From Thermoleophilia bacterium (GTDB lineage Bacteria > Actinomycetota > Thermoleophilia > RBG-16-64-13): a stretch of DNA of 64,000 nt. Below the pieces are notes generated by a model. The model saw nothing but the letters and a program-made list of their open reading frames with translations. It did no database searches and was not told the DNA's origin. The DNA lies in the NCBI GenBank assembly GCA_040768135.1, contig JAXGNF010000001.1, positions 16,257 through 80,256 of the forward strand, read 5' to 3'. Below are positions 28,659-48,533 of this stretch, in pieces (the first letter of the stretch is position 1; the number at the start of each line of letters is the position of its first letter). The position numbers and the translations under genes were made by a program.

Positions 28659-30761
28659 CTACACGTTCATGGCAGTCCGGAGCCCTGTGCCCACCGCGTC
28701 GGCTATGAGTCCGGGTTGAGCGCAGTCGCCTACCGTGTAAATCTCGGGAACTCGGCCCTCGAGCTTGGCTCTGAGGTCTTCTTTGGCGGTCAAGGGCAGC
28801 GCTGAGACGAAGGTGTCGGCCTGGAGGGTTCTCATCTGGCCTTCCTTGGTGATGATGGTGAGGCCCTCGTCGGTGATTTCTACGTACTCCTTCACTCCCG
28901 AGATCATCTCGACGCCCTTCTTCTTGAACCAGATGGTGAGGTAGCCGAGAAGGGCGGGGACCATGCCCTCACCCAACGTTTCCGCGGTGTCGACGATGGT
29001 CACCTTCCTGCCTCGCTTGACCAAGAACTCGGCCAGCTCACAGCCTTGGAGCGCACCGCCGATCACCACCACGTTTTTGCCTATGCCCGGCATATAGAAT
29101 CGAGTCAGTGATCGTAGGGTGTAGGGCGTAAAGAAGCGTGAGTAGAACTTGAGCTGTTTGTGGAGGTCACCTCCGCTCACTACATTCGGTCCATCGATCC
29201 CTTTGATGGCAGGGACGGTCGGCGAAGCGCCCGTGGCAAGAAAGACCACGTCGGGCTTGAGTTCTTCCACAGTCGAGACATCGGCTTCTTTGCCCAAAAC
29301 CACTTTGACGCCGAGTTTCTTCATCTGCCCTCGCAGGTACTTGACGATCAAAGGCACATCCTCAGGATGCGGTCCTTTGACCATGGCTGCGATCGGAAGC
29401 AGCCCGCCCAGTATGGGGGCTTTTTCATAGAGGGTCACGTCATGGCCTCGCAGAGCCGAGACCCGGGCGGCCTCCATGCCGGCAGGGCCGCCTCCGATAA
29501 CAAGCACCTTCTTCTTGATCTCCGCGTCACGGATGGTGTTGACGGGCAGCCCCATGAGCGCATTGATACGACAGCGCCTGCTGCCGAGGCAGTTGTCGCA
29601 GCCGGTACACGGAGCTATATCGTCCAGCCGGCCCTCTTTGATCTTGTTGACATACTCGGGATCGGCGTGGAGCCGTCTGGTCATACCGATGAAGTCGGCC
29701 ATACCCTGCTCTAGGATCTTCTCACCTAGGTCGCAATCCAGCCTACCCACCACAATGACGGGGATGGAGACCTTTTCTTTGATCCCTGCGGCGAGGAGCA
29801 TGTTGGCACCCGCTCCCTTGCCCTTCGTGTAGTACTCCTTGGGGAAGTTCTTCAGGGGGATAGGTGCATCGGGATAGAAGAGTGCGTCGCACAGGTAGGC
29901 GGCTTCATGGTATCCGATCCAATGGCTGCGCACCATGATGCCATCGGCGCCCGCCTTTTCTATGTACCGAGCGTGTTCCTGGGCCACTTCTGCTGGGATG
30001 CAGGAGCCGTCATCGATGTCGCAGATCTGGCCGACCTCGAGGCCGTTTATGCAGACCGTGACTGGGAAGTCTGAGCCGCACAGCCTCTTGATCTCAGTGA
30101 CGACCTGACAGACGAAGCGGCTACGGTTCTCGGCGTTACCCCCGTATTCGTCCGTGCGTCTGTTCCAGAATGGCGAGAGGAAGTTGTGGAGGAGGTGGCT
30201 GCTCGAAGCATTGATGTCCACCCCGTCGAAGCCCGCCTTCTTTGCCCGAAGGGCACACTGGGCGAACTTCTCCACAACGGCTTCGATTTCGGGGATGGTC
30301 AGCGGGTGGGGGACCTCGTTGTGGAAGTCGGTCTCGCAGGGTACTGTCACGGTTGAGGCGGCGTAGGGCAGGCCGGAGTACGGCGGGTTTGGTACGAAGG
30401 GTAGGTGTACCTGCCAAGTACCGTCATGGTTCATCTGCATGAAGGTCGGGCAACCGTGTTTGTGGATCACGTCAGCGATCTGCGCCATTCCCGGGATGTA
30501 CTTATCGTCATCGAGCCGGTAACGGTCGCGCCAGCGACAGCCTGCCGGGTAGTCGACGGTGGGGGATTCGACGATTATCAGTCCAGTGCCACCTCGCGCC
30601 ATCGCCTCGTAGAAGGCTAGGACCTCGTCTCTCATGACCACGTCGTCTTCATGCCACATCATCACTCCGGCCCCGGTCTTGATGATGCGGTTACGGGTGG
30701 TGACGGGCCCGATGCGGCCCGGTTCGAGCAGCTTCACGTACTTATGGTTACTGTTGGTCAA
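28659..30761 (-). CDS. 2-enoate reductase family flavoprotein (OYE-like + 4Fe-4S + FAD/NAD(P) domain), paralog 2
   Basis: 700 aa; Cys motif CTGCDNCLGSRRC; C-terminal GGGPAG dinucleotide-binding domain. Confidence 0.8.
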   Translation of the reverse strand: MTNSNHKYVKLLEPGRIGPVTTRNRIIKTGAGVMMWHEDDVVMRDEVLAFYEAMARGGTGLIIVESPTVDYPAGCRWRDRYRLDDDKYIPGMAQIADVIHKHGCPTFMQMNHDGTWQVHLPFVPNPPYSGLPYAASTVTVPCETDFHNEVPHPLTIPEIEAVVEKFAQCALRAKKAGFDGVDINASSSHLLHNFLSPFWNRRTDEYGGNAENRSRFVCQVVTEIKRLCGSDFPVTVCINGLEVGQICDIDDGSCIPAEVAQEHARYIEKAGADGIMVRSHWIGYHEAAYLCDALFYPDAPIPLKNFPKEYYTKGKGAGANMLLAAGIKEKVSIPVIVVGRLDCDLGEKILEQGMADFIGMTRRLHADPEYVNKIKEGRLDDIAPCTGCDNCLGSRRCRINALMGLPVNTIRDAEIKKKVLVIGGGPAGMEAARVSALRGHDVTLYEKAPILGGLLPIAAMVKGPHPEDVPLIVKYLRGQMKKLGVKVVLGKEADVSTVEELKPDVVFLATGASPTVPAIKGIDGPNVVSGGDLHKQLKFYSRFFTPYTLRSLTRFYMPGIGKNVVVIGGALQGCELAEFLVKRGRKVTIVDTAETLGEGMVPALLGYLTIWFKKKGVEMISGVKEYVEITDEGLTIITKEGQMRTLQADTFVSALPLTAKEDLRAKLEGRVPEIYTVGDCAQPGLIADAVGTGLRTAMNV

Positions 30762-30794: not shown

Positions 30795-31274
30795 TCACTT
30801 GTTCCACCGCGACTTGTCCACTGTATAGGCCTCGGCCTCCACTTCGGGGGGCGAGGCTTCCCAGAAGAAGCGGATCGTATCTATTTTGAGCGCGCCGCTA
30901 TCATCGAGCGAGAGCTCGTATAACGGCAGATAGTCTTTCTCCACCTTCACCAGATCGGTGGACGTCTCATAGATCGTGGCCCGAACGAAGGCCACCGCCA
31001 CCATCCGTTTCTCGTCGACGAAGATGTCGTGGACCACGAATCGCTCGTAGTCCTCTGGGTGGCCCGTCAGCATGTTATAGAAATCCTCGCGGCTCTTGAT
31101 GGCGTTTTGAGGCCCGCCGAACAAGTACATGTAGGGGATGAAGGTGAGGTTGGGTGCAAAATACTTGTCCATGGCGTGGACGGTCTTGGCGTCTTGGGCG
31201 CTGGCGTTGTATTCAGCGAAGTAGTCCTTCATCCACTGAACGATCTCGTCATATGTCGGCTTCATGCTCTTCAT
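30795..31274 (-). CDS. NTF2-like (SnoaL/ketosteroid-isomerase-like fold) small protein, paralog B
   Basis: 159 aa, PTYDEIVQWMKDYF...; clear paralog of the adjacent 31320..31832 gene. Confidence 0.45.
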   Translation of the reverse strand: MKSMKPTYDEIVQWMKDYFAEYNASAQDAKTVHAMDKYFAPNLTFIPYMYLFGGPQNAIKSREDFYNMLTGHPEDYERFVVHDIFVDEKRMVAVAFVRATIYETSTDLVKVEKDYLPLYELSLDDSGALKIDTIRFFWEASPPEVEAEAYTVDKSRWNK

Positions 31275-31319: not shown

Positions 31320-31832
31320 TTATGCGTACTTACGTTGAGGTCCCTCCGGGTTGTTCTTCCAATCGCGTTCAAACACGTCGTCGATCTCGAGTGCTCCGGC
31401 CGGCAGGATCTCCCAGAAAAAGTCGAGACGCTCGATCTTGATGGTCCCGTCTTCCTCCACCAGTGGATAGCGGCACAGATAGCGCTTGGTAAGCAGCAAC
31501 TCCTGGGTGTCGCGGTCGATGATGTCGGTCCTTATTTGGGCTACGAAGACCAGCCGCCGCTCGTCGATGACCAGATGTTCGGGTGTCAACCGCTCAATTC
31601 CCGAGGGATGCGAGGTCAGCACCTTGTACCAGTTGTCTCGACCCTCTACCTTGCCCACGTAGGCGATGAAAGGGTTGTACACGACATCTTTCGAGAAATA
31701 CTTGTCCATACGGTGGATCTCGGCTGGGTCCTGGCCGTATTTGTTGAACTCGTCGAAGTATTCGTCGATCCAGGCGGCAAGTTCGTCATAAGTCGGTTGC
31801 ACGGTTGCGTCCTCCCGGTTGCGGGATGCCAT
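31320..31832 (-). CDS. NTF2-like small protein, paralog A
   Basis: 170 aa, PTYDELAAWIDEYF...; start overlaps the stop of the upstream cupin gene by 1 nt. Confidence 0.45.
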   Translation of the reverse strand: MASRNREDATVQPTYDELAAWIDEYFDEFNKYGQDPAEIHRMDKYFSKDVVYNPFIAYVGKVEGRDNWYKVLTSHPSGIERLTPEHLVIDERRLVFVAQIRTDIIDRDTQELLLTKRYLCRYPLVEEDGTIKIERLDFFWEILPAGALEIDDVFERDWKNNPEGPQRKYA

Positions 31833-32311
31833 CAGAAGTTCTTTACGTAGTTCGGATCGTTGGCCGCTTCGAACATGAAGATAGGGGTGTCGATCCTCTT
31901 GATCGTGATGGGACAGTGCTCCACTCCTTTGGGGACGAAGATGAGGCAGGTCTTGGTGACCGTGTGTTTCTCTCCGCCTATGTTGACCTCGATCTCTCCG
32001 CCCAGATCGCGTGGATAATTGCGGTTGGTACCCCCGAAGCCGATGACTTCATCGAAGTCGTGGGTGTGCGGTATTTCGATGTCGACCGGCTTGCCTCCAG
32101 GCAGCCCCCACAGTATCTCGCACCCCACGAAGAGCGGACATCCGGGAACGATGGAGTCCATGATCCCCAAGAGCATCGTCCTGTCGAGGATCTTTCCCTC
32201 CTTGGCCTGGTCTTCCATGGCCTTGACCATGGCCTCAGGCATGGGAGGCATCCGGTCCTCGGTAAGGAAGTACTTTCCGTACTTGGATTCGGTCCTCTCC
32301 GGTTCGGTCAT
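31832..32311 (-). CDS. Cupin-fold metal-binding protein, paralog B
   Basis: Cupin motif 1 PHTHDFDEVIGFGG and motif 2 PKGVEHCP. Confidence 0.55.
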   Translation of the reverse strand: MTEPERTESKYGKYFLTEDRMPPMPEAMVKAMEDQAKEGKILDRTMLLGIMDSIVPGCPLFVGCEILWGLPGGKPVDIEIPHTHDFDEVIGFGGTNRNYPRDLGGEIEVNIGGEKHTVTKTCLIFVPKGVEHCPITIKRIDTPIFMFEAANDPNYVKNF

Positions 32312-32775
32312 CTTGTTTCTCCTTGTTCCATTTTTTCCCGATGGCCACCCGGGTCGGCTTCGGCAAGGCTGCCGGCTCCGATCATCACCGTCATCTCCAG
32401 ATGGGGTCTCGTGAACCTTTTCCAGGTTAGCGGCCCGTGTTTCACTCCTTTGGGGACAAAGACCGAGGAGGTCTTGTTGATGATGAGGGCCTTGCCGTCG
32501 ACCATGAATTCGATCTCCGCTCCCAAGTCTTCTTGATCTTCGGGGTCGATGCCCACATGCATCACGATCTCGTCGTAGTCATGGACGTGTTCCCCGATGT
32601 GTGGATTGGGATCCGGCATCGCTTTTATCCAGCCGACCTCCACGTACATGTTCGTTCCGGGGACGAGGTTGTTGCTCATAAGGGTCATTGCCGGTATACG
32701 TCCTGCCACCTCGAAGGCTGGGATCACCTCATAGGCCGGGCTGCGCACGAAATATCTCTCAGCGTCGAGTGCCAT
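32308..32775 (-). CDS. Cupin-fold metal-binding protein, paralog A
   Basis: EHVHDYDEIVMHVG and PKGVKHGP; 4-nt overlap with paralog B. Confidence 0.55.
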   Translation of the reverse strand: MALDAERYFVRSPAYEVIPAFEVAGRIPAMTLMSNNLVPGTNMYVEVGWIKAMPDPNPHIGEHVHDYDEIVMHVGIDPEDQEDLGAEIEFMVDGKALIINKTSSVFVPKGVKHGPLTWKRFTRPHLEMTVMIGAGSLAEADPGGHREKMEQGETR

Positions 32776-34204
32776 AGTGCTCCGTCCTTTCTAGTAGCTC
32801 GCCCGTCTTCCCGGGGTGGTTCAGTTGCTGCCCGTCACAGGCGACTACATATTTCTGCATGAGTCGCAGCGCTTTTGCCGGTTCACTCTGGGCCAAGAGG
32901 CCCAAGGCGAAAAGCACGTAATCAGCGTCGAGCATGAACTGGGGTGCCTTGGGCTTGAGTAGCAGGGGGTACGCTGTATCGAACACCGCCCCTGCCAACA
33001 CCTCGGCCGGGTCGGCCGAAAACGACACCGGTCCACCGGCCCCCACCACCCATCGTAACTGGGTGAGGTCTTTGCCTCTTTGTACAACGACCTCCCCGTC
33101 GGGGGTCACGATGTGTTTCAGCGAACCTACGTGTCTATCGACCGCGGAGCGTACGGCCACCTTGGCAAGGAGTAGATGGCAGGCGGTCTGCTCATCCCCG
33201 CTGGGGACGCTGTTTTCCCGACACATGACGGCCACCAAGTCGTCGAAGTTGTCGGGTAATTGCTCCATCTCCGCTATCGTCTGCAGGGTATCGAGGTTAT
33301 GGAACAGACCCAAGTCGCCCTCCACAGTGCGCTTGGCGTACGGCTCGGCCAAGCCGAGGAAACGTACGGTACCGGAGGTGGGTGCCCCCGTGGCGACGGA
33401 GTAGACATCAGTTGTGGCCCCACCAACATCGACCAGAAGCAGTTCACCTATGCCCTGGTGGCCGTCGGTGCCGTCGGCCAGAAGCTTCGCGGCTTCGAGC
33501 ACTGCGGCCGGGGTAGGCATGATGACATCGGCTATGAGGCTCCGGGCCCGGCTGATGCCCTTCGCTTCAGTGATCCGGGCGATGAAGAGATCTCTGATCT
33601 TATGGTTGGCCGCGTCAACTTCCAAGATGCCGATCTCAGGCATGACGTTGGTAGTGAAGAGGACGTTTTTGCCCGAGCCGGCGAATAAGGCCTCGACGTC
33701 GTCATAGGCCGACTTGTTGCCGGCGACGATGATGTTGGTGATGCGGGAGCCCGCTCGAGCCAGCAACGTTGCGTTGTGAGTAATGACTTTCTTATTGCCG
33801 CCGTCGGTGCCCCCCGTAAGGAGGACTATGTCGGGAGCGATCTCTTCGATCTCTCGCAGTTCGCGTTCTGACAATTCGAAAGAGTACGAAGCCACTATCT
33901 TGGCCCCGGCTCCTAGAGCGGCTCTGCGACCGGCCTCGGTGGTGTAATCAGGCACCAAACCTACGCACACGACCCGGAGTCCGCCGGCCGCGCTACTGCA
34001 AGCCACGGTCTGTCGTCGTTCGGTCTCTCCGAAAGGAACTTTCTCGGCGAGGAGCGCGAAAGCCTCTTCGAGGGCGATCGTCACATCTCGGTCGACACTG
34101 GAAGGCACCTGCACCCGACCGATGAGCTCCTCGGCCTCCAGGTCGAATGCCACCAATTTGGTGAAAGTACTGCCGAAATCGACGAAGAGCCGTGTGCTTG
34201 TCAC
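32759..34204 (-). CDS. glmL: MutL/GlmL family protein (glutamate mutase accessory ASKHA-type ATPase, putative reactivase/chaperone)
   Basis: N-terminal VDFGSTFTKLVAFD signature; ~480 aa; sits immediately downstream of glmS. Confidence 0.65.
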   Translation of the reverse strand: MTSTRLFVDFGSTFTKLVAFDLEAEELIGRVQVPSSVDRDVTIALEEAFALLAEKVPFGETERRQTVACSSAAGGLRVVCVGLVPDYTTEAGRRAALGAGAKIVASYSFELSERELREIEEIAPDIVLLTGGTDGGNKKVITHNATLLARAGSRITNIIVAGNKSAYDDVEALFAGSGKNVLFTTNVMPEIGILEVDAANHKIRDLFIARITEAKGISRARSLIADVIMPTPAAVLEAAKLLADGTDGHQGIGELLLVDVGGATTDVYSVATGAPTSGTVRFLGLAEPYAKRTVEGDLGLFHNLDTLQTIAEMEQLPDNFDDLVAVMCRENSVPSGDEQTACHLLLAKVAVRSAVDRHVGSLKHIVTPDGEVVVQRGKDLTQLRWVVGAGGPVSFSADPAEVLAGAVFDTAYPLLLKPKAPQFMLDADYVLFALGLLAQSEPAKALRLMQKYVVACDGQQLNHPGKTGELLERTEHYGTRR

Positions 34205-34235: not shown

Positions 34236-34673
34236 CTATAGTTCACGGACGCCGGTCCGTCTACGACCGAGGTCGGCTTTCAGGTCTTCGATGGCCAACC
34301 TCACATCGGTCTCAGGGGGATAAACACGGTCGAAACCCATCCGCCTGAATTTGGCCTCGTCTTCGGGAAAGTTGCGTCTGGACACACCCAGAATGCCCCC
34401 GATATAAAGGATGATGTCCTCCAGGCCGGCCTCGGTGCATTTATCGCGGAAACCCTCGAGGTCCAACTCGGCCATGCCGTAGAGCGAACTGATCATCATG
34501 GCGTCGGCCGCCGTCTCTTGGGCAGCCATGATGAACTCTTCCGGCGGAGTCTGAGCACCTAACTCCACCACCTTGAACCCTGCCTCCCGGAGGGCTCGGG
34601 AGACGATCTTAGTCCCGATGACGTGGGCATCGACTCCGACGGTCCCTGTGATGACGCAGCCTATATGGTCCAT
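34236..34673 (-). CDS. glmS: Glutamate mutase sigma subunit (methylaspartate mutase S chain), cobalamin-binding Rossmann domain
   Basis: DxHxxG motif (GVDAHVIG) and ...SSLYGMAELDLEGFRDKCTEAGL...GG...FRRMGFDRVYPPET... closely match clostridial GlmS/MutS (recalled from memory). Confidence 0.8.
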   Translation of the reverse strand: MDHIGCVITGTVGVDAHVIGTKIVSRALREAGFKVVELGAQTPPEEFIMAAQETAADAMMISSLYGMAELDLEGFRDKCTEAGLEDIILYIGGILGVSRRNFPEDEAKFRRMGFDRVYPPETDVRLAIEDLKADLGRRRTGVREL

Positions 34674-34707: not shown

Positions 34708-35619
34708 TCAAACCGCGACCTCACAGGGGAGACCGCGGGCTTCTACGATATTGCAGGCGGCCTGCATGAATGCCGGTGACGGCGTTTCGGCGGTCGCCAG
34801 TTCATAGTCGAGTCCCAGCATGTCGTACTTCTGCTGACCATAACGGTGGTAGGGGAGGAGGTGTACCGTCGCTCGGGGAGCGTGGGTGGCCACCATCTCG
34901 GTGATATCGGAAATGGCATCGCTTGTGTCGTTGAAACCCGGGACTACCGGTATGCGCACTACCAGGGATACGTCGCTCGCTGCCACCTCGTCAAAATTAC
35001 GTAGGATGGCTTCGTTTGAGCAGCCGGCTTGGATCCGGTGGATTTTTGGATCGATGTGTTTGATGTCGAAGTAGAAGAGATCAGTGTAGGGGATGATCCG
35101 CCGCAGTGCTTCAAGGCTACCTTGTCCCGAGGTGTCGACGCATGTGTGGAAACCCGCCTCGCGACACCTCTTGAGGAGAGCCACGGCGAATTCGGGCTGC
35201 ATAAGGACCTCTCCACCCGACAAGGTGATACCTCCACCTGAGTCCTCATAGAAGTCGGCGTCGCGTTCGAGGACGGCGAACACCTCGGCATCCGTCATCT
35301 CCTTGCCTGTGATACGCATGGCGTCATGAGGACAGGCATCGACGCAATCCCCGCATACAGTGCAGGCGTCGCGGTCGATCACAATACCGTCTGAGCCTAC
35401 CGTGATGGCGCCCCCGGGACAGGCGGTCACACACCGATAGCACCGTTTACAGAGGGAGTCGCGGTGCATGAGTTCGGGAATGATACTCTGGGACTCTGGG
35501 TTCGAACACCACACGCAACTCAGAGGGCAGCCCTTGAAAAAAACCGTAGTCCGGATACCCGGACCATCGTCGATGCTGTACCTCTGGATGTTAAACACGA
35601 TCCCCGTCACCGTTGCCAC
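34708..35619 (-). CDS. Glycyl radical enzyme activating enzyme (radical SAM) with a two-[4Fe-4S] ferredoxin-like insert
   Basis: CPLSCVWC radical-SAM motif (CxxxCxxC variant) plus CKRCYRCVTACP and CTVCGDCVDACP clusters, the glycerol-dehydratase/BSS-type activase architecture. Confidence 0.85.
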   Translation of the reverse strand: MATVTGIVFNIQRYSIDDGPGIRTTVFFKGCPLSCVWCSNPESQSIIPELMHRDSLCKRCYRCVTACPGGAITVGSDGIVIDRDACTVCGDCVDACPHDAMRITGKEMTDAEVFAVLERDADFYEDSGGGITLSGGEVLMQPEFAVALLKRCREAGFHTCVDTSGQGSLEALRRIIPYTDLFYFDIKHIDPKIHRIQAGCSNEAILRNFDEVAASDVSLVVRIPVVPGFNDTSDAISDITEMVATHAPRATVHLLPYHRYGQQKYDMLGLDYELATAETPSPAFMQAACNIVEARGLPCEVAV

Positions 35620-35702: not shown

Positions 35703-38258
35703 CTAACCTACCTCATGCATGGTCCGCTCAACGATCTCGTCCTGCAGCTCGGGCGGTAGGTCGACGAAGTAAGCGCTGTAGCCCCCTACACGGACCAGTA
35801 GGTCCTTATGGGCTGCCGGTTCTTTGCGCGCCTCCACGAGTTCTTCGACACTGTGGATGTTGAACTGGATGTGCCAGCCCCCACGTTTGGTAAAAGTCTT
35901 GATGAGAGAAGACACTTTGCTCAACTTCTCCGGACTGTTAAGCACGGCCTTGGAGAACTTCATGTTGTGGGCTACTCCGGCGCACTCGTACGGGGTCGGG
36001 TACTTGGTGGCCGAGAGGATCAGGGCGGTTGGGCCGTTGACGTCGCCGCCCGGCATGGCTGAGGTGCCGCCATCGTAGATGGGGGTACCGGCATAGCGCC
36101 CGTTGGGCATCGCACCCACGGCTTTTCCCTGTGTCACATGGCCGGCCGCCGCACCCTTGAACAACATGGGTTTCTCGCCGGTGATGGGGTCGGGACGGCT
36201 TTGCAGGATCCCCTGAGTATCCCGGGATAGCCGGACGTACCAGTCGTCCACATAGTCGTCATCGTTGCCGTATTTGGGGGCTTTGAGGCACATCTGACGG
36301 ATATCCTCATGGCCCTCCCAGTTGGCGTCCATGGCGTCCAACAACTGGGCCATGGTGATCTTTTTCTCGTCGAACACCAGGTATTGGACGGCCGCCATGT
36401 AGTCGGCGCAGTCGCAAATGCCTTTGTCGCCCACCCAGGAGGCCTTGCCGATAGGGTAGCGGCAGCCGCCTTCGCGTGAGGCCAACCCGGCCGGGATACA
36501 GTCACGGAAGAGCATGCCGGCGCGTAACCCGCTCATCGGGCTGTTGGCGATCTCGCTGGTCCACCAGATGAAGTAGTGGTCACGCATCTTTTCCGCGAAG
36601 TAATCCTCCTGCTTGAGAAAGGCTTCGTAGAGCTGTTCGATGGATGTGAACGTTCTCGGGTCGCCGGTGTGCAGGCCCACTTGCTTGCCCGTGCGGGGGT
36701 CGAAACCGTCGTGGAGCGTGACTTCCATGACTTTGGCCTGAACAAGGTTGAAGGCTCCAGCCATGTGTTCGGCGCATTCCAAATGGTAGCCGAGGCACCC
36801 GCTTGCACTCCAGTTGCAGGCATCCTCTATGGGCACACCTCGGTCAAGGTAGCGGCGGGTCCCCAACTCGTCGTTCAAGAAGGCAGGATTACCCCCACCG
36901 AACTCGCGGTTGCATTCGAGCGCATGGATGATGAAGTTCTCGTCCTGCTCGTCGTGATAGCGGACGTAAACGGCCGGCTCCGATAGGTGGACCTGAGCCA
37001 TAACCTCGAGGATCATCCAAGAGAGCTCATTGGTGAGATCGTTGCCGTCTTTGTCTCGGCCGCATAGAGTGACGTTGGGCAGTTGGCTACCGGGAGCGGC
37101 GCGGTGCTCGCGCTTGATGGTGACCAAGTTCTCGACTTCGCGGATCTTCAGCCACATGGCGCCTATCAGCTCAGCTGCCTGCTGGCGGGTAAGGTTCCCG
37201 CTCTCGATATCGGCCTTGTAGTACGGGTACCAGAATTGGTCGATCCGTCCGATCCCCACCTCAGCTCTTTCGGGGCTCTCTTTCCAGGCGGCCAGATGCA
37301 TGAAGCGCACCGATTGGACGGCTTCCCAGAAGTTGCGAGGCGGCTCAGCGGGTACATGTTCACATACGTCCGCGATCTTCTCGAGCTCGGCCTTGCGGAC
37401 CGGGTCAGTCGTTGTGGCGGCCATCTCACGGGCCAGAGCGGCATGTCGCTTGGCAAAATTGATTACGGCCTCGAACATGATGACGATGGACTTGAGTAGG
37501 TACCACTTGCGGAGGGCGTTGACGCTCGAGCGGTCCTCCAACGCGCCTTCAGCCTTCATCTTCTCCATCTCGGCCTTGGCCAGACCGATGACGTGCCTGA
37601 AGCCGAGCCTCAACACCTCGCCGGAAAGCATGATCACGCCGCCGCCCATAGCGCCGTAACCCTGGAAGAGGCCCCGGTCGGGGTTCTCACGCACGCCGCG
37701 GCCCTCGAGGATCATCGCGTGGTCGAAGAGGAGGTCGAAGTGCTCTTTGCCGAGCTCTTCTTCAAGGGCCACGTTCACATAGTTGACCGGGTTCATGTGT
37801 TCGACCCAGTATTCGGCGTCGGCTGTAAGCTTCTCCAGATCTTCGGGGTCGATGACCGTCGAGGAGATATCACTCAGCTTGCGGTCGAAACGGCCACTTT
37901 TGCACATGGCCAAGATCTCACGGGGCTTCACAGCGCAAAGGGTGTTGTTGCCGCGGATGAACTTCGTTGACGAGCCTACGATGATCTCGTCGTCGCGAAT
38001 CAGGATGGGACAGTTCTCCATCCTCTTCTCGAACGCCTTGGCCCAGCGGAAGTCGACCGGCATCTGCTCGGTCTCTTTCCAGGATTCGGTGAACAGCAGT
38101 GTGTCGTCTACATAAACCTGTGGAGCGGCGTCTTCCCACTCCTTCTTCAGCTTATTGAGACGATCGGTCATGACGACTACCGATTTGATCTCTTTTGCGG
38201 CGTCCGGGTGGATGGTGCCTTGGATCACGGGGGTGATGTTCGAGGATTCCACTGCCAT
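35703..38258 (-). CDS. Glycyl radical enzyme (pyruvate formate-lyase superfamily) of unknown specificity
   Basis: 851 aa with a C-terminal glycyl-radical motif RVGGYSAYFVDL...Q.EIVERT and a Cys loop ...EDACNWSASGCLGY.... Confidence 0.9.
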   Translation of the reverse strand: MAVESSNITPVIQGTIHPDAAKEIKSVVVMTDRLNKLKKEWEDAAPQVYVDDTLLFTESWKETEQMPVDFRWAKAFEKRMENCPILIRDDEIIVGSSTKFIRGNNTLCAVKPREILAMCKSGRFDRKLSDISSTVIDPEDLEKLTADAEYWVEHMNPVNYVNVALEEELGKEHFDLLFDHAMILEGRGVRENPDRGLFQGYGAMGGGVIMLSGEVLRLGFRHVIGLAKAEMEKMKAEGALEDRSSVNALRKWYLLKSIVIMFEAVINFAKRHAALAREMAATTTDPVRKAELEKIADVCEHVPAEPPRNFWEAVQSVRFMHLAAWKESPERAEVGIGRIDQFWYPYYKADIESGNLTRQQAAELIGAMWLKIREVENLVTIKREHRAAPGSQLPNVTLCGRDKDGNDLTNELSWMILEVMAQVHLSEPAVYVRYHDEQDENFIIHALECNREFGGGNPAFLNDELGTRRYLDRGVPIEDACNWSASGCLGYHLECAEHMAGAFNLVQAKVMEVTLHDGFDPRTGKQVGLHTGDPRTFTSIEQLYEAFLKQEDYFAEKMRDHYFIWWTSEIANSPMSGLRAGMLFRDCIPAGLASREGGCRYPIGKASWVGDKGICDCADYMAAVQYLVFDEKKITMAQLLDAMDANWEGHEDIRQMCLKAPKYGNDDDYVDDWYVRLSRDTQGILQSRPDPITGEKPMLFKGAAAGHVTQGKAVGAMPNGRYAGTPIYDGGTSAMPGGDVNGPTALILSATKYPTPYECAGVAHNMKFSKAVLNSPEKLSKVSSLIKTFTKRGGWHIQFNIHSVEELVEARKEPAAHKDLLVRVGGYSAYFVDLPPELQDEIVERTMHEVG

Positions 38259-38492: not shown

Positions 38493-38771
38493 CTAGCCGC
38501 TACTGTGAAAGCGCGTCAGCAGCAACTCCCCGCCATTCTCTATCAGCCTCTCTTCGTCGTCGGGCCATTGGAGGCGATGGCCGTTCGTCATGAGCACCAC
38601 TGCGTAGTGCATCCTTCCCTGCTGATCAAAAAGCTCTTTGCCAAGGCGGGGATGGAGCCGGGCAAGTTCTCTAAGAGTTGAGGAGAGGGTCTGGCTGCCG
38701 CCCTCGATGTTGACGAGTTCGGAATCGACGAACCGGCGGAGATCGCCAATAAGCCTGACTCGTATAGCCAC
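38493..38771 (-). CDS. MoaD/ThiS-like beta-grasp family small protein
   Basis: 92 aa, MAIRVRLIGDLRRF...VVLMTNGHRL..., matching the MoaD-like pattern. It does not end in GG. Confidence 0.4.
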   Translation of the reverse strand: MAIRVRLIGDLRRFVDSELVNIEGGSQTLSSTLRELARLHPRLGKELFDQQGRMHYAVVLMTNGHRLQWPDDEERLIENGGELLLTRFHSSG

Positions 38772-38780
38772 CCGTGCCTC

Positions 38781-39620
38781 CTACGGCTGCCCTTCCGGGG
38801 GGCAGAGGCGTTCGTCGGCAAGCCGGTTGATTGCGGCCGCAGAGACATCAACTACTGCGGCTCCGCCATCGACGGGAATGCAGGCCGCCGTCAGAAAGCC
38901 CGCGTCGTCACCGGCGAGGAAGCTGCAGAGGCCCGCCATCTCCCGGGGACTAGACACTCGGCGCAGGGGAATATCGTGTGAGAAGGCTCGGAAAACCTCC
39001 TCCACGTCGATGTTACAGGCTTCCGCGAACGGTGTCATGCCGCTGACAAACATCTCGGTCTTGGTGGCGCCCGGGCACACCACATTGCAGCGTATGTTGT
39101 TCAATCCGAAATCGACGGCCACTTGTTTCGTGAGGCTTATAAGTCCGCCCTTCGACGCACAGTAGGCCGGCAGACCGGGGACTCCTAGCAGCCCGGCCAA
39201 CGAGGAGATATTGATGATGGAGCCTCCCCCAGCTTCGATCATGTGAGGGATGACCGCTTTCATCATCAGGAAGGGCCCGGTGAGGTTTGCGGCCATGACC
39301 CGGTCCCACACAACGGGGTCGAGGTCGACCACGGTGTTCATGGGTTGTTCCATCCCGGCGTTGTTGACAAGGATGTGGAGGCCCTCTCCGAACGACAGAG
39401 CGGTCTCAACCACACGGTCTACGCCACCTGGGTCGGTCACGTCGGCCGCACAGGTCTTAATCTGTTCGACCGGAAGGGCGCCTGCCGTCGCCGCCAGCAT
39501 CTCGGGTCTACGACCTGTGATGCAGACTCTGGCTCCGTCTGATACAAAACGAGCGGCGATGGCTCTCCCGATACCGGTGCCCCCTCCGGTGATGATCGCC
39601 ACCTTGCCGCTCAGACCCAC
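38781..39620 (-). CDS. SDR family oxidoreductase
   Basis: ITGGGTGIGRAIA motif with YxxxK. Confidence 0.8.
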   Translation of the reverse strand: MGLSGKVAIITGGGTGIGRAIAARFVSDGARVCITGRRPEMLAATAGALPVEQIKTCAADVTDPGGVDRVVETALSFGEGLHILVNNAGMEQPMNTVVDLDPVVWDRVMAANLTGPFLMMKAVIPHMIEAGGGSIINISSLAGLLGVPGLPAYCASKGGLISLTKQVAVDFGLNNIRCNVVCPGATKTEMFVSGMTPFAEACNIDVEEVFRAFSHDIPLRRVSSPREMAGLCSFLAGDDAGFLTAACIPVDGGAAVVDVSAAAINRLADERLCPPEGQP

Positions 39621-40216: not shown

Positions 40217-41668
40217 CTACTTACCCATGTATGCGAGCGCGCTCCTACCGGCGATCCGCCCGGAGTTGAGGGCGAAAGCCGAAGCCAGACCCGAAGAACC
40301 TTTGATCGGATAGCTGTCACCGTACATGCCCCCGACATCGAATCCTCCTGCGTACAAACCGGGGATGACGTCGTCCTTTTTGTCGAGTACTTCCAGCCTA
40401 CCGGTGACTCTTAGGCCGCCCATAGTGCCTAGGAAAACGGTGCGGGCCCGAGTTGCGTAGAACTGGGGGCCGGTCAATGGTCGCAGGTATCGGGGATCCT
40501 TCGCGAAAAGCTCGTCATACCCTTGAGCGCAGTACCGGTTGTATTCGTCCACTGTGGCTGTGAGTGTAGCCGGGTCGATCTCCAGCTGTGAGGCGAGTTC
40601 CGCGAGCGAGTCGGCTGCAAACACCTCGGTGCTCTTGTTGTCTAGCGCCGCCTGTATCTCTCGGCGCAGCTCTGTCAACTTGAAGCCCGGAGGGAAGTCC
40701 ATCCCCACCCCTCTGTCCAAACCTCGCTCCTCCAGACGGTCTATGATCGAATCGTCGAAGATACTGTAGGTGTAGCCGTCGCTCTTGTAACGGCCCTGCG
40801 CGTTGCCGACGGGGGTGTCCCAGAAGGTGATGGCCTCGTCGCAAAACCTTTTGCCGCGGGATGTGACCCACAGGTCGGGTTGCGCTGAGGCCTGCTCCAG
40901 TTGGCAGCCCATGGCGAACTCATCCCCGACCGGAGCAACCCGGAACATTTCGATGGTGCCGACTCCCTCTTCGGCTGCCCCAAGTTCCCAGGCCATCCGC
41001 AGGCCGTCACCGGTCTTGCCGGTGTTACCGACCGGGAAAAGATTGACTCCGAGCTCGTAACCCGTGTAGCGCTTCACCCACTCTTTGTTGTTCGCATATC
41101 CGCCGCTGGCGATCACCACGGCCTTGACGGCCACGTCCATCTCTTCGTCATCGGAGTTGACGATGACGCCGGAGATACGCCCGCCTTCTCTTAAGAGGGC
41201 GACGACCGGCGTCCCCGGCATGAATACCACGCCCTTACTCTTAGCCTTGTCGACCAAAGCCTTCACGACCGCCTCGCCTTTGCCCTTGATGACATGGTAG
41301 GTGAGCGGTGAGTCGGGCATGTTGATCGTGGCGTCGGTGAAGACCACCCCTTGATCCTGCAGCCAGCGGATAGTGGGACCGGACTCGTTGATGATCGCTC
41401 TTACCAAATGAGGGTTAGCCCGCCAGTGGCTGGAGTCCATCGTGGCCTTGAAGCATTGGTCACGGGTATAGTCGACGTAGCGTGCGCGTTGCATGTCGCT
41501 CTCGACGGCGAAGGTACCCTGGAAGAAATTGGAGGTGCCTCCCAGAGATCGCTGTTTCTCAAATACAACGACTTTCGCTCCGCCTTCGGCCAAAGTGAGG
41601 GCGGCCGCCAGACCGGTAGCGCCGGAACCGACGACAGCAACATCGGCGTCTGCAGGTACTTCGCTCAT
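40217..41668 (-). CDS. FAD-dependent oxidoreductase, fumarate reductase/KstD-like flavoprotein family (FAD_binding_2)
   Basis: N-terminal VAVVGSGATGLAAALTLAEGG...E dinucleotide fold and a C-terminal flavoprotein domain; 483 aa. Confidence 0.7.
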   Translation of the reverse strand: MSEVPADADVAVVGSGATGLAAALTLAEGGAKVVVFEKQRSLGGTSNFFQGTFAVESDMQRARYVDYTRDQCFKATMDSSHWRANPHLVRAIINESGPTIRWLQDQGVVFTDATINMPDSPLTYHVIKGKGEAVVKALVDKAKSKGVVFMPGTPVVALLREGGRISGVIVNSDDEEMDVAVKAVVIASGGYANNKEWVKRYTGYELGVNLFPVGNTGKTGDGLRMAWELGAAEEGVGTIEMFRVAPVGDEFAMGCQLEQASAQPDLWVTSRGKRFCDEAITFWDTPVGNAQGRYKSDGYTYSIFDDSIIDRLEERGLDRGVGMDFPPGFKLTELRREIQAALDNKSTEVFAADSLAELASQLEIDPATLTATVDEYNRYCAQGYDELFAKDPRYLRPLTGPQFYATRARTVFLGTMGGLRVTGRLEVLDKKDDVIPGLYAGGFDVGGMYGDSYPIKGSSGLASAFALNSGRIAGRSALAYMGK

Positions 41669-41681
41669 CTAGGCCCCTTTC

Positions 41682-43796
41682 TCAGTAGCTGCCCCAGAAC
41701 TTGACGGTCTTGATTTTGAGCCGTAGGTCGCATTGTAGACAGCGGGCCGACTCGTAGACCGCAGTTTCTTCATCCATACCCAAGACGACCTCGCAGAAGC
41801 CGCCCAAACGCTCTTCGGGCGGTACGCATGTCTCCTGAGCCCGTCTCAAAGCGGCAAAATCCTCATCCGGCCCGAGCCAGGGGTCTGGCTCCGCCTGCGG
41901 GGTCGGCCGCCTGTCGATGCGGCCGCTGCCTCCCAAGAATTTGTCCACCGCTATCGCCGCCTGTCTTCCCGAAGCGATCGCCTTGATCGCCGACGCGGTG
42001 CCCGACACCGCGTCTCCCGCGGCGAACACTCCCTCTCGGCTCGTTGACCCGGTGAAGGGGTCCACCTCGAGAAGACCGCCGTCCGTCTTGTCCAGGTCGA
42101 AGTCAACGGGTGCATCCGGTCGCTGGCCCACGGCGAAGATGACGGTGTCGGCGGCAACGACATGGGTCGAATCCTCGACCGTAGTGATCTGCGGCAGGCC
42201 ATCGTCGTCGAAGCAGAAGTTCTCCACATTGAGGAACTCCACGCCGGAGACCCTGCCGTCGTTGGTCAGGATGCGCGTAGAGGTATGCGATGGCGCAATG
42301 GATATTCCCTCGTCTTCACCTTGCTCGATCTCGTCGGCGCCGGCGGGCATGTCAGGCCTGCATTCGAGACAAGCAATGAGCACTTCTTTCGCTCCCAAGC
42401 GGCGGGCTACACGGGCGCAATCGAAGGCCACGTTGCCACCGCCAAGAACGACGACCCGCTCTCCCACATCAGGATGGTCGCCCATGTTCACCGCTCGCAG
42501 GAGGTCTACACCGACGAGGGTTCCCTTGCTGTTCGCACCGGGGATGCGCAGCTTCTGACCTTTGTGTGCTCCGATGGCGACAACTACTGCGTCGTAGCCG
42601 TCCCGGAAAAGCCCGTCGATCGAGTCCACCGGAGTCCCGGTTCTTATGATTACCCCGGCGGCCTCGATGTCATCGATCTCAGTCTCGAGCACGGCTCGTG
42701 GAAGCCGGTACTCAGGAACACCGTAGCGTAGCATCCCTCCCGCTTCGGGGAGAGGCTCGAAAACGGTCACGGCGTGGCCTTGGAGACAGAGGTAATAGGC
42801 GGCGCTGAGCCCCGCCGGTCCAGAGCCGAGCACGGCCACCTTCTTCTCCGAAGGAGGTGCGGGGGTTGCGCTCTCTCTCCATGTGCCGGTTGAATCGTGC
42901 TCAGCAGCGAAGCGTTTGAGTTCTCGGATAGATATCGGATCATTTATTTCGCCTCGGCGGCACACCGTTTCACAGGGATGGTCGCAGATATAGCCGAGCA
43001 CTCCGGGGAAGGGGACCTTCTCGCGGATTACGGCGACGGCCCTGGCGTAATCGCCCTCCTTGACGGCGCGGATGTATCGAGGGACGTCGATTTCGGCTGG
43101 GCAGGTGCTCCTGCAGGGCACGAGAACGGCTTTGCGGTTCTGGTTCTGTAGCAACTCCTCTTTGTCTTGGATGGCGCCGGTGGGGCACACTTCGGCGCAG
43201 GCCCCGCAAAAACGGCATCCTGAGTCGGCCAGCGCTTCATTCTCAGGCGTCGAGATATACATCTCGCCTTGTCGTTTCTTGTAATAGAGGACACCCACCC
43301 CGCGCAGGTCAGAGCAGGCTCGGACGCAACGCCCGCAGAGTACGCACTTGTTAGGGTCATAGACAAAGAGCGGATCACTGCTCCTTAAGGGAAGGAGCCT
43401 CGGGTGTCGCTTGACGCGCAGCTCTTCTACGCCGAGGTACTGCTTCAGCGACTGGAGTTCGCAGTTGAGATACTTCTGGCAACTCCCGCACTCGGGCGGG
43501 TGTCCGACAAGGAGCAGTTCCATGGCGAGCCGCCGCAGCCGCGTGATTTGGTCCGATTGGGTGCGAACCACCATCCCCTCGGCTACCAGTGTGGCGCACG
43601 ACGCGGTCACGCCTTTGACGCCGTCGACCTCCACTATGCACAACCGGCAGCCACCCCCGGGAGGCAGATCCGGATGGTGGCAGAGGTGGGGCACGTAGAT
43701 CCCGGCTTCCAGGGCCGCGTCGAGGATGCTCGTGCCGGCCGGGACGGTCAGGTCATTGCCGTCGATGGCGAAGGTGATGGTGCTCGAGTCGGTCAT
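41682..43796 (-). CDS. Fe-S flavoprotein: [2Fe-2S]/[4Fe-4S] HydA/NuoG-N-terminus-like domains fused to a GltD-like (glutamate synthase small chain/NfnB-like) FAD/NAD(P)H oxidoreductase
   Basis: Has CHHPDLPPGGGCRLC and the 4Fe-4S motifs CVLCGRCVRAC and CRFCGACAEVCP. The GltD-like Fe-S region is followed by a VAVLGSGPAG...AAGD Rossmann domain. Confidence 0.75.
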   Translation of the reverse strand: MTDSSTITFAIDGNDLTVPAGTSILDAALEAGIYVPHLCHHPDLPPGGGCRLCIVEVDGVKGVTASCATLVAEGMVVRTQSDQITRLRRLAMELLLVGHPPECGSCQKYLNCELQSLKQYLGVEELRVKRHPRLLPLRSSDPLFVYDPNKCVLCGRCVRACSDLRGVGVLYYKKRQGEMYISTPENEALADSGCRFCGACAEVCPTGAIQDKEELLQNQNRKAVLVPCRSTCPAEIDVPRYIRAVKEGDYARAVAVIREKVPFPGVLGYICDHPCETVCRRGEINDPISIRELKRFAAEHDSTGTWRESATPAPPSEKKVAVLGSGPAGLSAAYYLCLQGHAVTVFEPLPEAGGMLRYGVPEYRLPRAVLETEIDDIEAAGVIIRTGTPVDSIDGLFRDGYDAVVVAIGAHKGQKLRIPGANSKGTLVGVDLLRAVNMGDHPDVGERVVVLGGGNVAFDCARVARRLGAKEVLIACLECRPDMPAGADEIEQGEDEGISIAPSHTSTRILTNDGRVSGVEFLNVENFCFDDDGLPQITTVEDSTHVVAADTVIFAVGQRPDAPVDFDLDKTDGGLLEVDPFTGSTSREGVFAAGDAVSGTASAIKAIASGRQAAIAVDKFLGGSGRIDRRPTPQAEPDPWLGPDEDFAALRRAQETCVPPEERLGGFCEVVLGMDEETAVYESARCLQCDLRLKIKTVKFWGSY

Positions 43797-47813: not shown

Positions 47814-48533
47814 TCACCCTCCCAGATATGCTTTTTTGACGATCTCACTGCATCGCAGGGTCTCCACATCTCCGGCCTGCACTACTCGGCCTACCTCGAG
47901 CACGTAGCCGTGGTCGGCGACACCCAAAGCCAGGTGGGCGTTCTGCTCCACCAAGAGGACACTTATGCCCTCTTTGTTGATCTCGCGGATGACTTCGCCC
48001 ACCTGCTCCACTACGATGGGAGCCAATCCCACTGATGGCTCATCCAGACACAGGATCCGAGGGCGGGCCATCAGTCCTCGTCCGATGGCCACCATCTGTT
48101 GCTCTCCACCCGAGAGGGTGCCGGCGTTCTGCTTCTGGCGCTCTTTGAGACGGGGGAAGAGGGTGTACACGTATTCAAGAGATTGGGCGATTCCCGCTTT
48201 GTCGTTTCGGACAGTGGCCCCCAACTTGAGGTTGGTAAGCACGGAGAGATAAGGGAAGAGTTGACGGCCCTCGGGGACCAATACGATGCCCCTGCGCACG
48301 CGGGCGTAGGTCTCCAGGTGGTCGACGGATTCTCCTTGAAAACGGATCGTACCCGCCTGGATAGGGATCAGACCGGCCAGGGCCCTCAGCACCGTACTCT
48401 TGCCCGCGCCGTTGGCCCCGATCATAGTGACGATTCCGCCCTCGGGCACCTGCAAGGAGACCTCGCTGATCGCCAGCGACTTGCCGTAGTAAACGGTGAT
48501 GTTATCGATCTCAACAAACATAGTCGGTCCCAA
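47814..48533 (-). CDS. ABC transporter ATP-binding protein (LivF-like)
   Basis: Walker A GANGAGKST and LSGGEQQ. Confidence 0.85.
   Translation of the reverse strand: MGPTMFVEIDNITVYYGKSLAISEVSLQVPEGGIVTMIGANGAGKSTVLRALAGLIPIQAGTIRFQGESVDHLETYARVRRGIVLVPEGRQLFPYLSVLTNLKLGATVRNDKAGIAQSLEYVYTLFPRLKERQKQNAGTLSGGEQQMVAIGRGLMARPRILCLDEPSVGLAPIVVEQVGEVIREINKEGISVLLVEQNAHLALGVADHGYVLEVGRVVQAGDVETLRCSEIVKKAYLGG

Follow-up and report, generated by a model that had tools for sequence, protein, structure and literature searches.

A predicted, widespread family of glycyl radical enzymes that lacks the Cys-x-Glu glutamate and is linked to an altered B12-dependent mutase

Introduction

What does a glycyl radical enzyme (GRE) catalyse when its catalytic loop carries a glycine in place of the glutamate kept by the characterised eliminases? 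This question is raised by the gene at positions 35703-38258 of a 64,000-nucleotide stretch of contig JAXGNF010000001.1 (assembly GCA_040768135.1, a Thermoleophilia bacterium), referred to here as the window, for which a preliminary description drawn from the sequence had proposed a probably uncharacterised class of GRE. The GREs, which are oxygen-sensitive radical enzymes, perform hard anaerobic chemistry that is relevant to gut health, to sulfur and nitrogen cycling and to hydrocarbon degradation. Seven classes are recognised in a superfamily review of June 2026, which stresses that whole clades of GREs have no assigned function (PMC13450708). The missing glutamate alone would be a moderately interesting marker of one among many such clades. 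The gene also belongs to a conserved operon with a B12-dependent carbon-skeleton mutase whose substrate pocket is altered; the system is therefore of higher interest and offers a direct experimental handle on the substrate, as both enzymes can be assayed together. The literature searched describes neither this GRE family nor its link to the mutase, and the pairing of a GRE, its activase and such a mutase in one operon is likewise undescribed there.

The gene and its activase

The GRE gene and its closest companions are the following.

35703-38258, minus strand: GRE of 851 aa, uncharacterised family, Cys loop SGCLGYHLxxxEH (translation, Pfam, NCBIfam, Protein Data Bank (PDB) matches, AlphaFold2 model, Foldseek)
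35724-35792, minus strand: glycyl radical fingerprint RVGGYSAYFVDLPPELQDEIVER, radical site Gly826 (sequence compared with the published fingerprint)
34708-35619, minus strand: GRE activating enzyme of the radical S-adenosylmethionine type, with CX3CX2C and two auxiliary CX2CX2CX3C clusters (Pfam, TIGR02494, motif search)
38781-39620, minus strand: short-chain dehydrogenase/reductase (SDR) oxidoreductase upstream of the GRE (Pfam, synteny)
38493-38771, minus strand: cysteine-free open reading frame (ORF) of 92 aa between the SDR and the GRE (sequence, synteny)

The ORF of 851 codons is intact on the minus strand, a strand that the preliminary description left unmentioned while placing the ORF itself correctly; read on the plus strand, the same interval contains many stops. 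The product has a PFL-like domain (PF02901, residues 30-691, E 5e-162) followed by a Gly_radical domain (PF01228, residues 731-832, E 9e-26). Its C-terminal RVGGYSAYFVDLPPELQDEIVER is an exact fit to the published definition of the GRE fingerprint, RVxG[FWY]x6-8[FL]x4Qx2[IV]x2R, through R823-V-G-G826-Y, L834, Q839, I842 and R845, in agreement with the glycyl-radical motif that had first been read there. These two domains and the fingerprint, together with the invariant Cys488, matched in alignments by the catalytic cysteines of five solved GREs, a modelled fold close to the ten-stranded GRE barrel with its finger loop, and the adjacent radical activase, place the protein in the GRE superfamily.

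The activase gene lies directly downstream of the GRE gene, and its product scores 354 bits against a cut-off of 174 with TIGR02494. It carries CX3CX2C at residue 31 and CX2CX2CX3C at residues 57 and 86; the latter two motifs corroborate the ferredoxin-insert type assigned previously, and the top-scoring models are those of eliminase activases. The absence of small subunits of the BSS kind also held, as no Cys-rich small ORF was seen near the GRE gene. The 92-aa ORF is the only small conserved ORF near the GRE, and it is not a BSS-type Fe-S subunit because it is kept only in close Actinomycetota relatives; it also lacks Cys and any Pfam match. An ORF of 161 aa upstream of the GRE in two other loci (L003 and L086) was likewise rejected as a small subunit, being unrelated to the window ORFs and found only there. 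Judged from its sequence, the gene encodes an intact, apparently functional GRE of a distinct, widespread and uncharacterised family.

A Cys loop with glycine in place of glutamate

36765-36803, minus strand: Cys loop SGCLGYHLECAEH, residues 486-498, with the thiyl Cys488, Gly490 at the position of the Cys-x-Glu glutamate, His492 and Glu497-His498 (alignments)

All eliminases and isomerases keep a glutamate two residues past the thiyl Cys (the Cys-x-Glu, or CXE, motif); in the eliminases it forms a hydrogen bond with the hydroxyl group of the substrate, and CutC and IslA, in which it has been mutated, cannot do without it (PMC13450708). The loop of the window GRE reads SGC488-L-G490-YHLECAEH. 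The string given in the preliminary description, EDACNWSASGCLGY, occupies residues 478-491, with the Cys488 codon at 36795-36797 and the Gly490 codon at 36789-36791, and the placement of a Gly where the general-base Glu sits was borne out by every alignment. HMMER pairwise alignments with four substrate-bound eliminase structures (HpzG 8IOF, CutC 9F3W, HpsG 6LON and IslA 7KQ3) are gapless over the loop and set Gly490 opposite the Glu, pairing SGC-L-G with xGC-[VTI]-E. In the HMMER alignment with HypD 6VXC the HypD 'ET' falls in an insertion, so that it has no Glu counterpart in the query. A MAFFT L-INS-i alignment of ten family members and five PDB-derived sequences agrees in putting Gly490 at the Glu position. 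The second C-A-E described earlier is present at C495-A496-E497, seven residues past Cys488. Because Cys495 is not conserved (C/S/R/I/T across homologues; Glu494 also varies, D/E/S/A/G/N), the ECAEH segment cannot provide an alternative Cys-x-Glu, and no alignment gives a conserved Glu at Cys+2.

The replacement loop is shared by nearly the whole family. A database search returned at least 120 clusters (90% identity) with 59-92% identity to the window GRE, all named generically 'pyruvate formate-lyase' or 'formate C-acetyltransferase', and SGCL[GA]Y[HN][LM]xxxEH is present in 119 of the 120 homologous clusters (at least 59% identity). In a 30-sequence alignment Cys488, Leu489, Tyr491, Leu493, Glu497 and His498 are invariant, while Gly490 and His492 are each at least 90% conserved. 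The rare variants read CLAYN, not CLGYH, so that positions 490 and 492 co-vary, a pattern consistent with a functional coupling of the two. To judge from these alignments, the loop is under strong constraint and is not a one-off substitution. Since it and other family-specific columns are nearly invariant across at least 120 clusters, strong purifying selection appears to act on the family. It is accordingly with this conservation that a degenerate eliminase, either a relic or a non-catalytic paralogue, has to be weighed. The missing Glu alone would suggest such an inactive protein; the ORF is nonetheless intact, the fingerprint perfect and the activase dedicated, and the near-invariance of the loop and of many family-specific columns extends over six bacterial phyla and one archaeal metagenome-assembled genome (MAG). 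We regard this explanation as highly improbable.

The absence of the Glu is real, and it proved less exceptional than had been implied. HMMER, run exhaustively on 1.84 billion cluster representatives, returned 7560 GRE-like proteins. Among the nearest 150 GRE representatives of 50%-identity clusters (P0241-P0390), Cys+2 is Glu in about 65; the others have N, Q, H, D, G, S, A and further residues. The loops of the nearest outgroups read CLA-YHL, CLG-IHV, CLG-YQV, CLS-YSL and CLN-YHI. Among characterised enzymes, PAD (PhdB) carries Gln484 two residues past its Cys (PMC13450708). As far as these sequences can tell, the loss of the Glu is recurrent in uncharacterised GRE sequence space rather than singular, which tempers the surprise of the bare observation. 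As a side observation, Cys+2 is extremely variable in uncharacterised GREs, and the CXE rule fits the studied enzymes rather than the superfamily as a whole.

Relation to the described classes

No NCBIfam equivalog model reaches its cut-off, and every score stays below half of it: 481 against 1000 for HpsG-type enzymes, 454 against 1100 for HypD, 405 against 1100 for IAD, 397 against 1050 for CutC, 377 against 1000 for HpfG, 305 against 1150 for HPAD and 88 against 994 for PFL (TIGR01255). The score with the broad PFL2-3 subfamily model, 477, is also below the cut-off of 678. In the PDB, the closest sequences found with phmmer (E about 1e-106 to 1e-114) all belong to eliminases, followed at a distance by MASS (2e-84), BSS (4e-76), HPAD (3e-58) and PFL (8e-23). 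Identity to solved GREs amounts to 32-36% over aligned regions and to 21-29% in Foldseek alignments. Foldseek gives a template-modelling score of about 0.8 to GRE structures, with 28-29% identity to GDH, HypD, PD, HpzG and CutC, 24-26% to MASS and BSS and, lowest among the solved GREs, 21% to HPAD. With clustering at 50%, about three representatives (48-52% identity) cover the family, after which identity drops to 41%. The protein falls outside the characterised families, and these results support the class proposed initially.

The same conclusion is reached from the defining residues. Where the eliminases and the isomerases HplG, YbiW and PflD have Cys-x-Glu, the window GRE has Gly490. Where the formate-lyases have two adjacent loop cysteines, found only in PFL and TdcE (PMC13450708), the loop reads G-C-L-G. 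At Cys+15, the position of an Arg in the X-succinate synthases (XSS), judged by offset, stands Phe503 (His in the family consensus), and there is no Arg in residues 499-510. The decarboxylase models IAD and HPAD match over part of the protein only, and the radical residue is Gly826, not the Ala, Ser or Thr of an aminoacyl-radical enzyme. The protein thus fails a defining feature of every described class, and therefore none of the seven classes fits; on this sequence evidence we consider it to represent a distinct, uncharacterised GRE family.

The eliminases (GDH 1R8W, PD 5I2G, HypD 6VXC, HpzG 8IOF, CutC 5FAU, IslA 7KQ3 and HpsG 6LON) are the best matches in sequence and fold. They are of similar size, need no small subunits and have the activase type with two auxiliary clusters. 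Alcohol dehydrogenase (ADH) and aldehyde dehydrogenase (ALDH) genes are neighbours of the GRE in the family, as they are in the dha, pdu, grp and sulfonate clusters of eliminases. The family differs from them, besides the glutamate, in a one-residue insertion in its KPxLFxGAAAGH strand and in a Gly loop that reads RVGGY instead of RVAGY.

An XSS-like activity has to be considered at this point. Such a hydroalkylase would join a C-H substrate to an unsaturated dicarboxylate or, working in reverse as a C-C lyase, split a substituted succinate or glutarate; the linked PrpD-like protein would act as an epimerase and the linked glutamate-mutase-like enzyme would rearrange the skeleton, in a CoA-free analogue of the alkylsuccinate route. 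We consider it unlikely. The XSS (BSS 4PKF/5BWE, MASS 9O8U) also lack an acid/base at Cys+2 and are encoded with a carbon-skeleton mutase and an epimerase-like protein, and a Gly at Cys+2 would favour a Cys-loop oxyanion hole for the fumarate carboxylate. The XSS, however, bind fumarate through that oxyanion hole and, at its distal carboxylate, through the Arg at Cys+15 (R508 in BSS, R492 in MASS), which is missing here together with any Arg nearby, and all characterised members have beta and gamma Fe-S small subunits (and delta in MASS), none of which is encoded near the GRE gene. MASS and BSS are, in addition, less similar in sequence and fold than the eliminases.

The decarboxylases PAD (PhdB) and AAD are a precedent in that a GRE can be active when Cys+2 is not Glu (Gln484 in PAD) and when it has no small subunit, as in AAD. 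A decarboxylase of this kind, whose substrate could be a di- or tricarboxylate or else an acid resembling an arylacetate, would be in keeping with the adjacent organic-acid transporters, with the LigM/DesA-like and VprA-like window genes for phenolic acids and with the only cultured host found, Sporobacter termitidis. The kinship is nevertheless remote: the decarboxylase models stay far below their cut-offs, HPAD is the most distant solved structure and AAD 7E7L ranks 50th in Foldseek. Decarboxylation would also leave the conserved aldehyde-handling enzymes of the neighbourhood unexplained, and we judge it quite unlikely.

Mapping of the active site

36138-36173, minus strand: family-specific strand KPMLFKGAAAGH, residues 696-707 (alignments, invariant columns)

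The motif of this strand, KPxLFxGAAAGH, served as the search pattern for the family. Active-site positions were mapped by sequence alignment to IslA and HypD, and an AlphaFold2 model was computed from the 30-sequence family alignment (mean predicted local distance difference test 79.6, predicted template-modelling score 0.86). Leu699, Gly702 and Ala704 of the invariant strand align with R678, V680 and F682 of IslA and with T645 of HypD. Ala387 and Leu393, which come shortly after the invariant Arg383 and Arg386, occupy the positions of HypD S334 and F340, and HypD D278 aligns with Ala332, between the invariant Arg331 and Glu333. Unlike in IslA (R678/V680/F682) and HypD (T645/S334/D278), the substrate-binding positions are thus Leu, Gly and Ala, and these small residues suggest a pocket roomier than those of the eliminases. 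The GAAAG strand and Gly490 would point to a large, possibly two-substrate cavity, as an XSS-like enzyme would have. Arg331, Arg383 and Arg386 are candidates for carboxylate binding. In the model, DSSP assigns residues 490-493 to the descending strand of the Cys hairpin, and positions 490 and 492 should therefore lie on the same face.

Distribution of the family

A scan of one genome per species yielded 80 GRE loci. The closest relatives (87-93% identity) belong to Gaiellales, Thermoleophilia and other Actinomycetota MAGs, and the hosts as a whole comprise Actinomycetota, Bacillota, Bacteroidota, Desulfobacterota, Spirochaetota and Acidobacteriota, a Dehalococcoidales MAG and a Bathyarchaeia MAG. 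At 53-70% identity are found Oscillospiraceae, among them many MAGs with isolate names resembling those of termite-gut surveys as well as rumen and sheep-gut MAGs, together with Papillibacter, Peptococcaceae, Desulfotomaculum, Moorellales, Syntrophomonas, Desulfobacteraceae, Spirochaetes, Bacteroidota, Acidobacteriota, human-gut Coriobacteriia, Dehalococcoidales and the Bathyarchaeia MAG. The source names cite soil, sediment, digesters, rumen, human gut and termite guts. Most of these hosts are fermenters of the gut, the rumen or termites, not degraders of hydrocarbons, which speaks against the XSS-like activity. Sporobacter termitidis DSM 10068 is the only isolate found among the GRE hosts, so that a cultured host is at hand. 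Sporobacter termitidis is a specialist on methoxylated aromatic acids.

A linked adenosylcobalamin mutase with an altered pocket

34236-34673, minus strand: GlmS-like B12-binding subunit with DxHxxG (DAHVIG) (NF002612, 183 bits against a cut-off of 110)
32759-34204, minus strand: GlmL-type mutase accessory protein, a reactivase/chaperone (Pfam MutL; NF040745, 517 against 475)
52765-54225, minus strand: GlmE-like catalytic subunit of an adenosylcobalamin (AdoCbl) mutase (tblastn, Pfam, alignment with 6H9E/1CCW; TIGR01503, 406 against 390)

In the window the activase gene is followed by GlmS and then GlmL, and GlmE lies 15 kb upstream. The three or four small ORFs after GlmL (155, 159 and 170 aa, together about the length of GlmE) were considered as a split GlmE and rejected, as they are cupin and SnoaL-like paralogues. 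A tblastn survey of the 51 loci with at least 5 kb downstream of the GRE found GlmE or GlmS within 10 kb of the GRE in 32 of them, in six bacterial phyla; GlmL is present in 27 and PrpD in 11. The usual order is GRE-AE-GlmE-GlmS-GlmL, where AE denotes the activating enzyme, and the linkage is kept through fusions and rearrangements. A Bacillota locus (L001) reads MFS-MFS-GRE-AE-GlmE-GlmS-GlmL-PrpD, with two transporters of the major facilitator superfamily (MFS), and three large genomes have a minimal operon, GRE-AE-GlmE::GlmS, with a fused mutase. In Oscillospiraceae a divergent PucR regulator precedes FeADH-FeADH-GRE-AE-GlmE::S-GlmL (FeADH, iron-type ADH), often followed by bicupin-SDR-OYE (OYE, old yellow enzyme). 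The reciprocal search, starting from the mutase, led to the GRE operon in two of three genomes. The third genome has a split arrangement, FeADH-GRE-AE-MFS and FeADH-GlmES-GlmL-PNPOx-(281 aa)-OYE-SDR, in which each module has its own iron-type ADH. By chance, a glutamate mutase gene would lie within 10 kb of a given gene in well under 1% of cases. Because of this, and because the association survives fusions, inversions and transfer between phyla, we consider the chromosomal linkage of GRE and mutase to be functional.

As a side observation, the cultured syntroph Pelotomaculum thermopropionicum SI (AP009389; L087, 6571-13441) has nitroreductase-MFS-AE-GlmE-GlmS-PrpD with no GRE there, flanked by transposase and integrase genes, which looks like a decayed copy of the operon. 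An Rfam scan of window positions 1-64000 gave no family at gathering score, and no cobalamin riboswitch near the B12-dependent genes.

The catalytic subunit resembles GlmES/GlmL of Clostridium cochlearium (1CCW, 6H9E) in its arginine claw, Arg66, Arg100 and Arg149, and in Tyr181, all of which are kept, as well as in its DxHxxG subunit and GlmL partner; its TIGR01503 score only just passes. In glutamate mutase the migrating glycyl moiety is bound by R66, R149 and E171, the last of these at its amine, and the acrylate part by R100 and Y177 (PMC10947579). The window protein differs at three positions, with Pro for the amine-binding Glu171, Ser for His150 and Trp for Tyr177, and the segment GGWTSNEGGGISYNVPY of the C. 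cochlearium enzyme corresponds to SGMNAFPNSFFGWIAGY, the conserved MPNSFFGW standing in place of NEGGGISY. More than 100 members of the mutase subfamily, many of them fused GlmE::GlmS proteins, share the motif [TN]A[MF]PNSFF[GA]W, which includes Pro171. It is readily inferred from these residues that the enzyme would still bind a 1,5/1,4-dicarboxylate, whose 2-substituent is unlikely to be ammonium and could be a neutral hydroxyl, oxo or methylene group. No methylaspartase, mesaconase or citramalate lyase gene was found near the mutase genes. Given the change of Glu171 to Pro, the altered His150, Tyr177 and surrounding segment and the lack of a neighbouring methylaspartase-type gene, the mutase is unlikely to act on glutamate, and the subfamily is probably not a glutamate mutase. 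Glutamate mutase slowly converts 2-hydroxyglutarate to 3-methylmalate. The fused GlmE::GlmS proteins (about 620-650 aa) have what we take to be the architecture of 2-methyleneglutarate mutase.

This mutase bears on two of the alternatives. In alkane degradation a carbon-skeleton mutase step after fumarate addition is established, which would favour the XSS-like activity; the mutase linked to XSS is nevertheless of the methylmalonyl-CoA-mutase type, whereas the one found here is of the glutamate-mutase type, which acts on free dicarboxylates. Addition of methane or small alkanes to fumarate, followed by rearrangement of methylsuccinate to glutarate, was considered and is very unlikely on chemical reasoning and in view of the absent XSS hallmarks. 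Another or new GRE chemistry can also be envisaged, either an isomerase acting through an allyl or captodative radical (of the methylitaconate or hydroxy-acid type) or a formate- or CO2-releasing cleavage of, for example, 3-methylmalate. Here the mutase pocket would suit neutral 2-substituents (OH, =CH2), and the minimal operon of the three large genomes suggests consecutive intermediates for the two radical enzymes; moreover, no known class fits and the nearest GRE space is very diverse at Cys+2. The proposal is nevertheless purely inferential, the known GRE isomerases keep CXE, and no diagnostic residue or neighbouring gene indicates a particular reaction. We find it fairly unlikely.

Recurrent neighbours and a tentative reaction

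Beyond the mutase, the following genes of the window recur near the GRE in other lineages or accompany the mutase genes.

61751-63169, minus strand: MmgE/PrpD-family protein (Pfam, PDB search, synteny)
26754-28649, minus strand: aldehyde:ferredoxin oxidoreductase (AOR) (Pfam, tblastn, gene orders)
32308-32775 and 31832-32311, minus strand: two paralogous cupin-like ORFs (Pfam, pairwise BLAST)
31320-31832 and 30795-31274, minus strand: two paralogous SnoaL/NTF2-like ORFs (Pfam, pairwise BLAST)
28659-30761, minus strand: OYE plus Pyr_redox Fe-S flavoenzyme of the BaiCD/2,4-dienoyl-CoA-reductase architecture (Pfam, NCBIfam)
40217-41668, minus strand: FAD_binding_2 flavoprotein, VprA/KstD/fumarate-reductase-like (Pfam, NCBIfam)
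41682-43796 and 43793-44962, minus strand: NuoG/GltD-like and NuoF-like proteins, partners of the FAD_binding_2 flavoprotein

Alcohol and aldehyde enzymes (iron-type ADH, ALDH, AOR, SDR) accompany the GRE in most lineages examined. In 15 loci the gene directly upstream of the GRE encodes an iron-type ADH, the intergenic gap being as small as 16 bp, and the place that the SDR holds upstream of the window GRE is filled in Oscillospiraceae by one or two such ADH genes. Orthologues of the AOR at 26754-28649 occur beside GlmL/GRE with 66-67% identity in Bacteroidota and Desulfobacterota MAGs, suggesting a transfer of the module between phyla, and with 53% in the Bathyarchaeia MAG (53-86% across phyla). 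This tight pairing of the GRE with ADH, ALDH and AOR would be left unexplained by an XSS-like activity. The PrpD-like protein has no NCBIfam match; its best solved relatives are iminodisuccinate (IDS) epimerase 2HP0 (4e-34) and IRG1/cis-aconitate decarboxylase. The former, its closest, is an epimerase of a substituted succinate, and this, like the recurrence nearby of a fumarate-reductase-like flavoprotein, is in line with an XSS-like route. The PrpD-like protein recurs beside the GRE in other phyla, and one paralogous context reads PrpD-ZnADH-lactonase-GRE-ALDH-ALDH-ALDH.

Among the remaining neighbours, the OYE/Pyr_redox flavoenzyme recurs in 19 of the 51 loci, and the trio of flavoprotein, NuoG/GltD-like and NuoF-like proteins (40217-44962) near the GRE in several other loci. 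The cupin pair corresponds to a fused bicupin near GRE/Glm operons in Oscillospiraceae (L059, 18764-19615; L045, 13446-14522); the tandem cupins and SnoaL-like proteins have no NCBIfam match, and PDB sequence searches with the bicupin and the SnoaL-like proteins were empty. Nitroreductase-family proteins, type III CoA-transferases and MFS, tripartite ATP-independent periplasmic (TRAP) and ATP-binding cassette (ABC) transporters are also recurrent near the GRE.

We tentatively favour a radical lyase or dehydratase, carrying out an elimination or scission on an oxygenated carboxylic acid, whose aldehyde product would be turned into a dicarboxylate for the mutase; as a specific proposal it is possible rather than probable. 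Elimination or scission is preferred because the eliminases are nearest in sequence, fold and activase, and because the aldehyde-handling context is the most widely shared. It can be hypothesised that an oxygenated carboxylic acid is imported by the MFS, TRAP or ABC transporters and that the Cys488 thiyl radical takes a hydrogen from its carbinol carbon, the substrate radical then undergoing beta-elimination or beta-scission. Another group would have to fill the role of the Glu. The leading candidate is His492, which co-varies with position 490 and would share its strand face; Glu497/His498 could serve instead, as could the carboxylate of the substrate itself. The adjacent ADH, ALDH or AOR would oxidise or reduce the carbonyl or aldehyde that is formed. 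The B12 mutase would then rearrange the C5-type dicarboxylate obtained in this way, which would bear a neutral 2-substituent (2-hydroxyglutarate/3-methylmalate-like or 2-methyleneglutarate-like, for instance), and the PrpD-like enzyme would receive it next.

Several points weigh against this proposal. The CXE Glu is essential in CutC and IslA, and since all characterised eliminases and isomerases keep it, an eliminase-type mechanism without it would be unprecedented. The proximity of His492, Glu497 or His498 to Cys488 is putative, and the confidence of the model is low at residues 378-392, 703-705 and 825-835, which are probably active-site loops. About a third of the loci have no mutase nearby, several of these being second copies in genomes whose other copy has the mutase. 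The neighbourhoods, finally, can neither place ADH, ALDH and AOR before or after the GRE nor make the GRE and the mutase consecutive.

A bolder proposal would place the GRE and the altered mutase in one pathway with consecutive small-dicarboxylate intermediates, combining a GRE reaction type not seen before with a new class of mutase substrate, of the 2-hydroxyglutarate or 2-methyleneglutarate type. The reaction might, for example, make or break a C-C bond of a C5 dicarboxylate in a setting other than hydrocarbon metabolism, or split a 3-methylmalate-like mutase product with release of formate or CO2. We hold this proposal to be doubtful. The co-occurrence of the GRE and the altered mutase across several phyla in any case suggests an undescribed anaerobic breakdown pathway. 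Should the substrate be found, both a new GRE reaction class and a new substrate for the glutamate-mutase family would be gained. If the two enzymes do form one pathway of this kind, an eighth GRE class defined by function would result, along with a new anaerobic route by which acids of plant origin are possibly used in termite guts, the rumen, soils and sediments.

Other genes of the window

The window (59.4% G+C) is a dense catabolic island, nearly all on one strand, with transporters and many oxidoreductases. Two complete Liv-type ABC uptake systems and one TRAP system are encoded (4710-9414, 47814-52639 and 15573-18698, minus strand). Transporters of the Liv-type ABC and TRAP kinds are used for aromatic or other organic acids in some anaerobes. 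Three paralogous tungsten-type AORs are present (54380-56272, 26754-28649 and 23140-25011, minus strand). The segment 40217-46350 (minus strand) includes a GCV_T-family protein resembling the tetrahydrofolate-dependent aryl O-demethylases LigM/DesA (E about 1e-50, below the cut-off), which adjoins a flavoprotein of the vinylphenol-reductase-like kind (358 bits against a cut-off of 600) and proteins resembling NuoF and NuoG/GltD; the segment may serve an anaerobic actinobacterium in the metabolism of lignin-derived phenolics. The LigM/DesA-like and VprA-like proteins, the three AORs and an acetophenone-carboxylase-like pair, together with the preference of the one cultured host for methoxylated aromatic acids, hint at a connection to phenolic or other acids of plant origin, but these genes are not conserved across lineages.

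A 455-aa protein at 21384-22751 (minus strand) has a URO-D-like domain in its C-terminal half only and no NCBIfam match; it may be the methyltransferase of a corrinoid-dependent demethylase system. The block at 56372-63169 (minus strand) comprises the PrpD-like protein, hydantoinase/acetophenone-carboxylase-like subunits A and B (with an Acetone_carb_G domain) and an SDR, and it could be an ATP-dependent ketone carboxylase or a lactamase. The same PrpD-to-SDR block stands beside the GRE/Glm genes in another Actinomycetes MAG (L015, 13076-20820).

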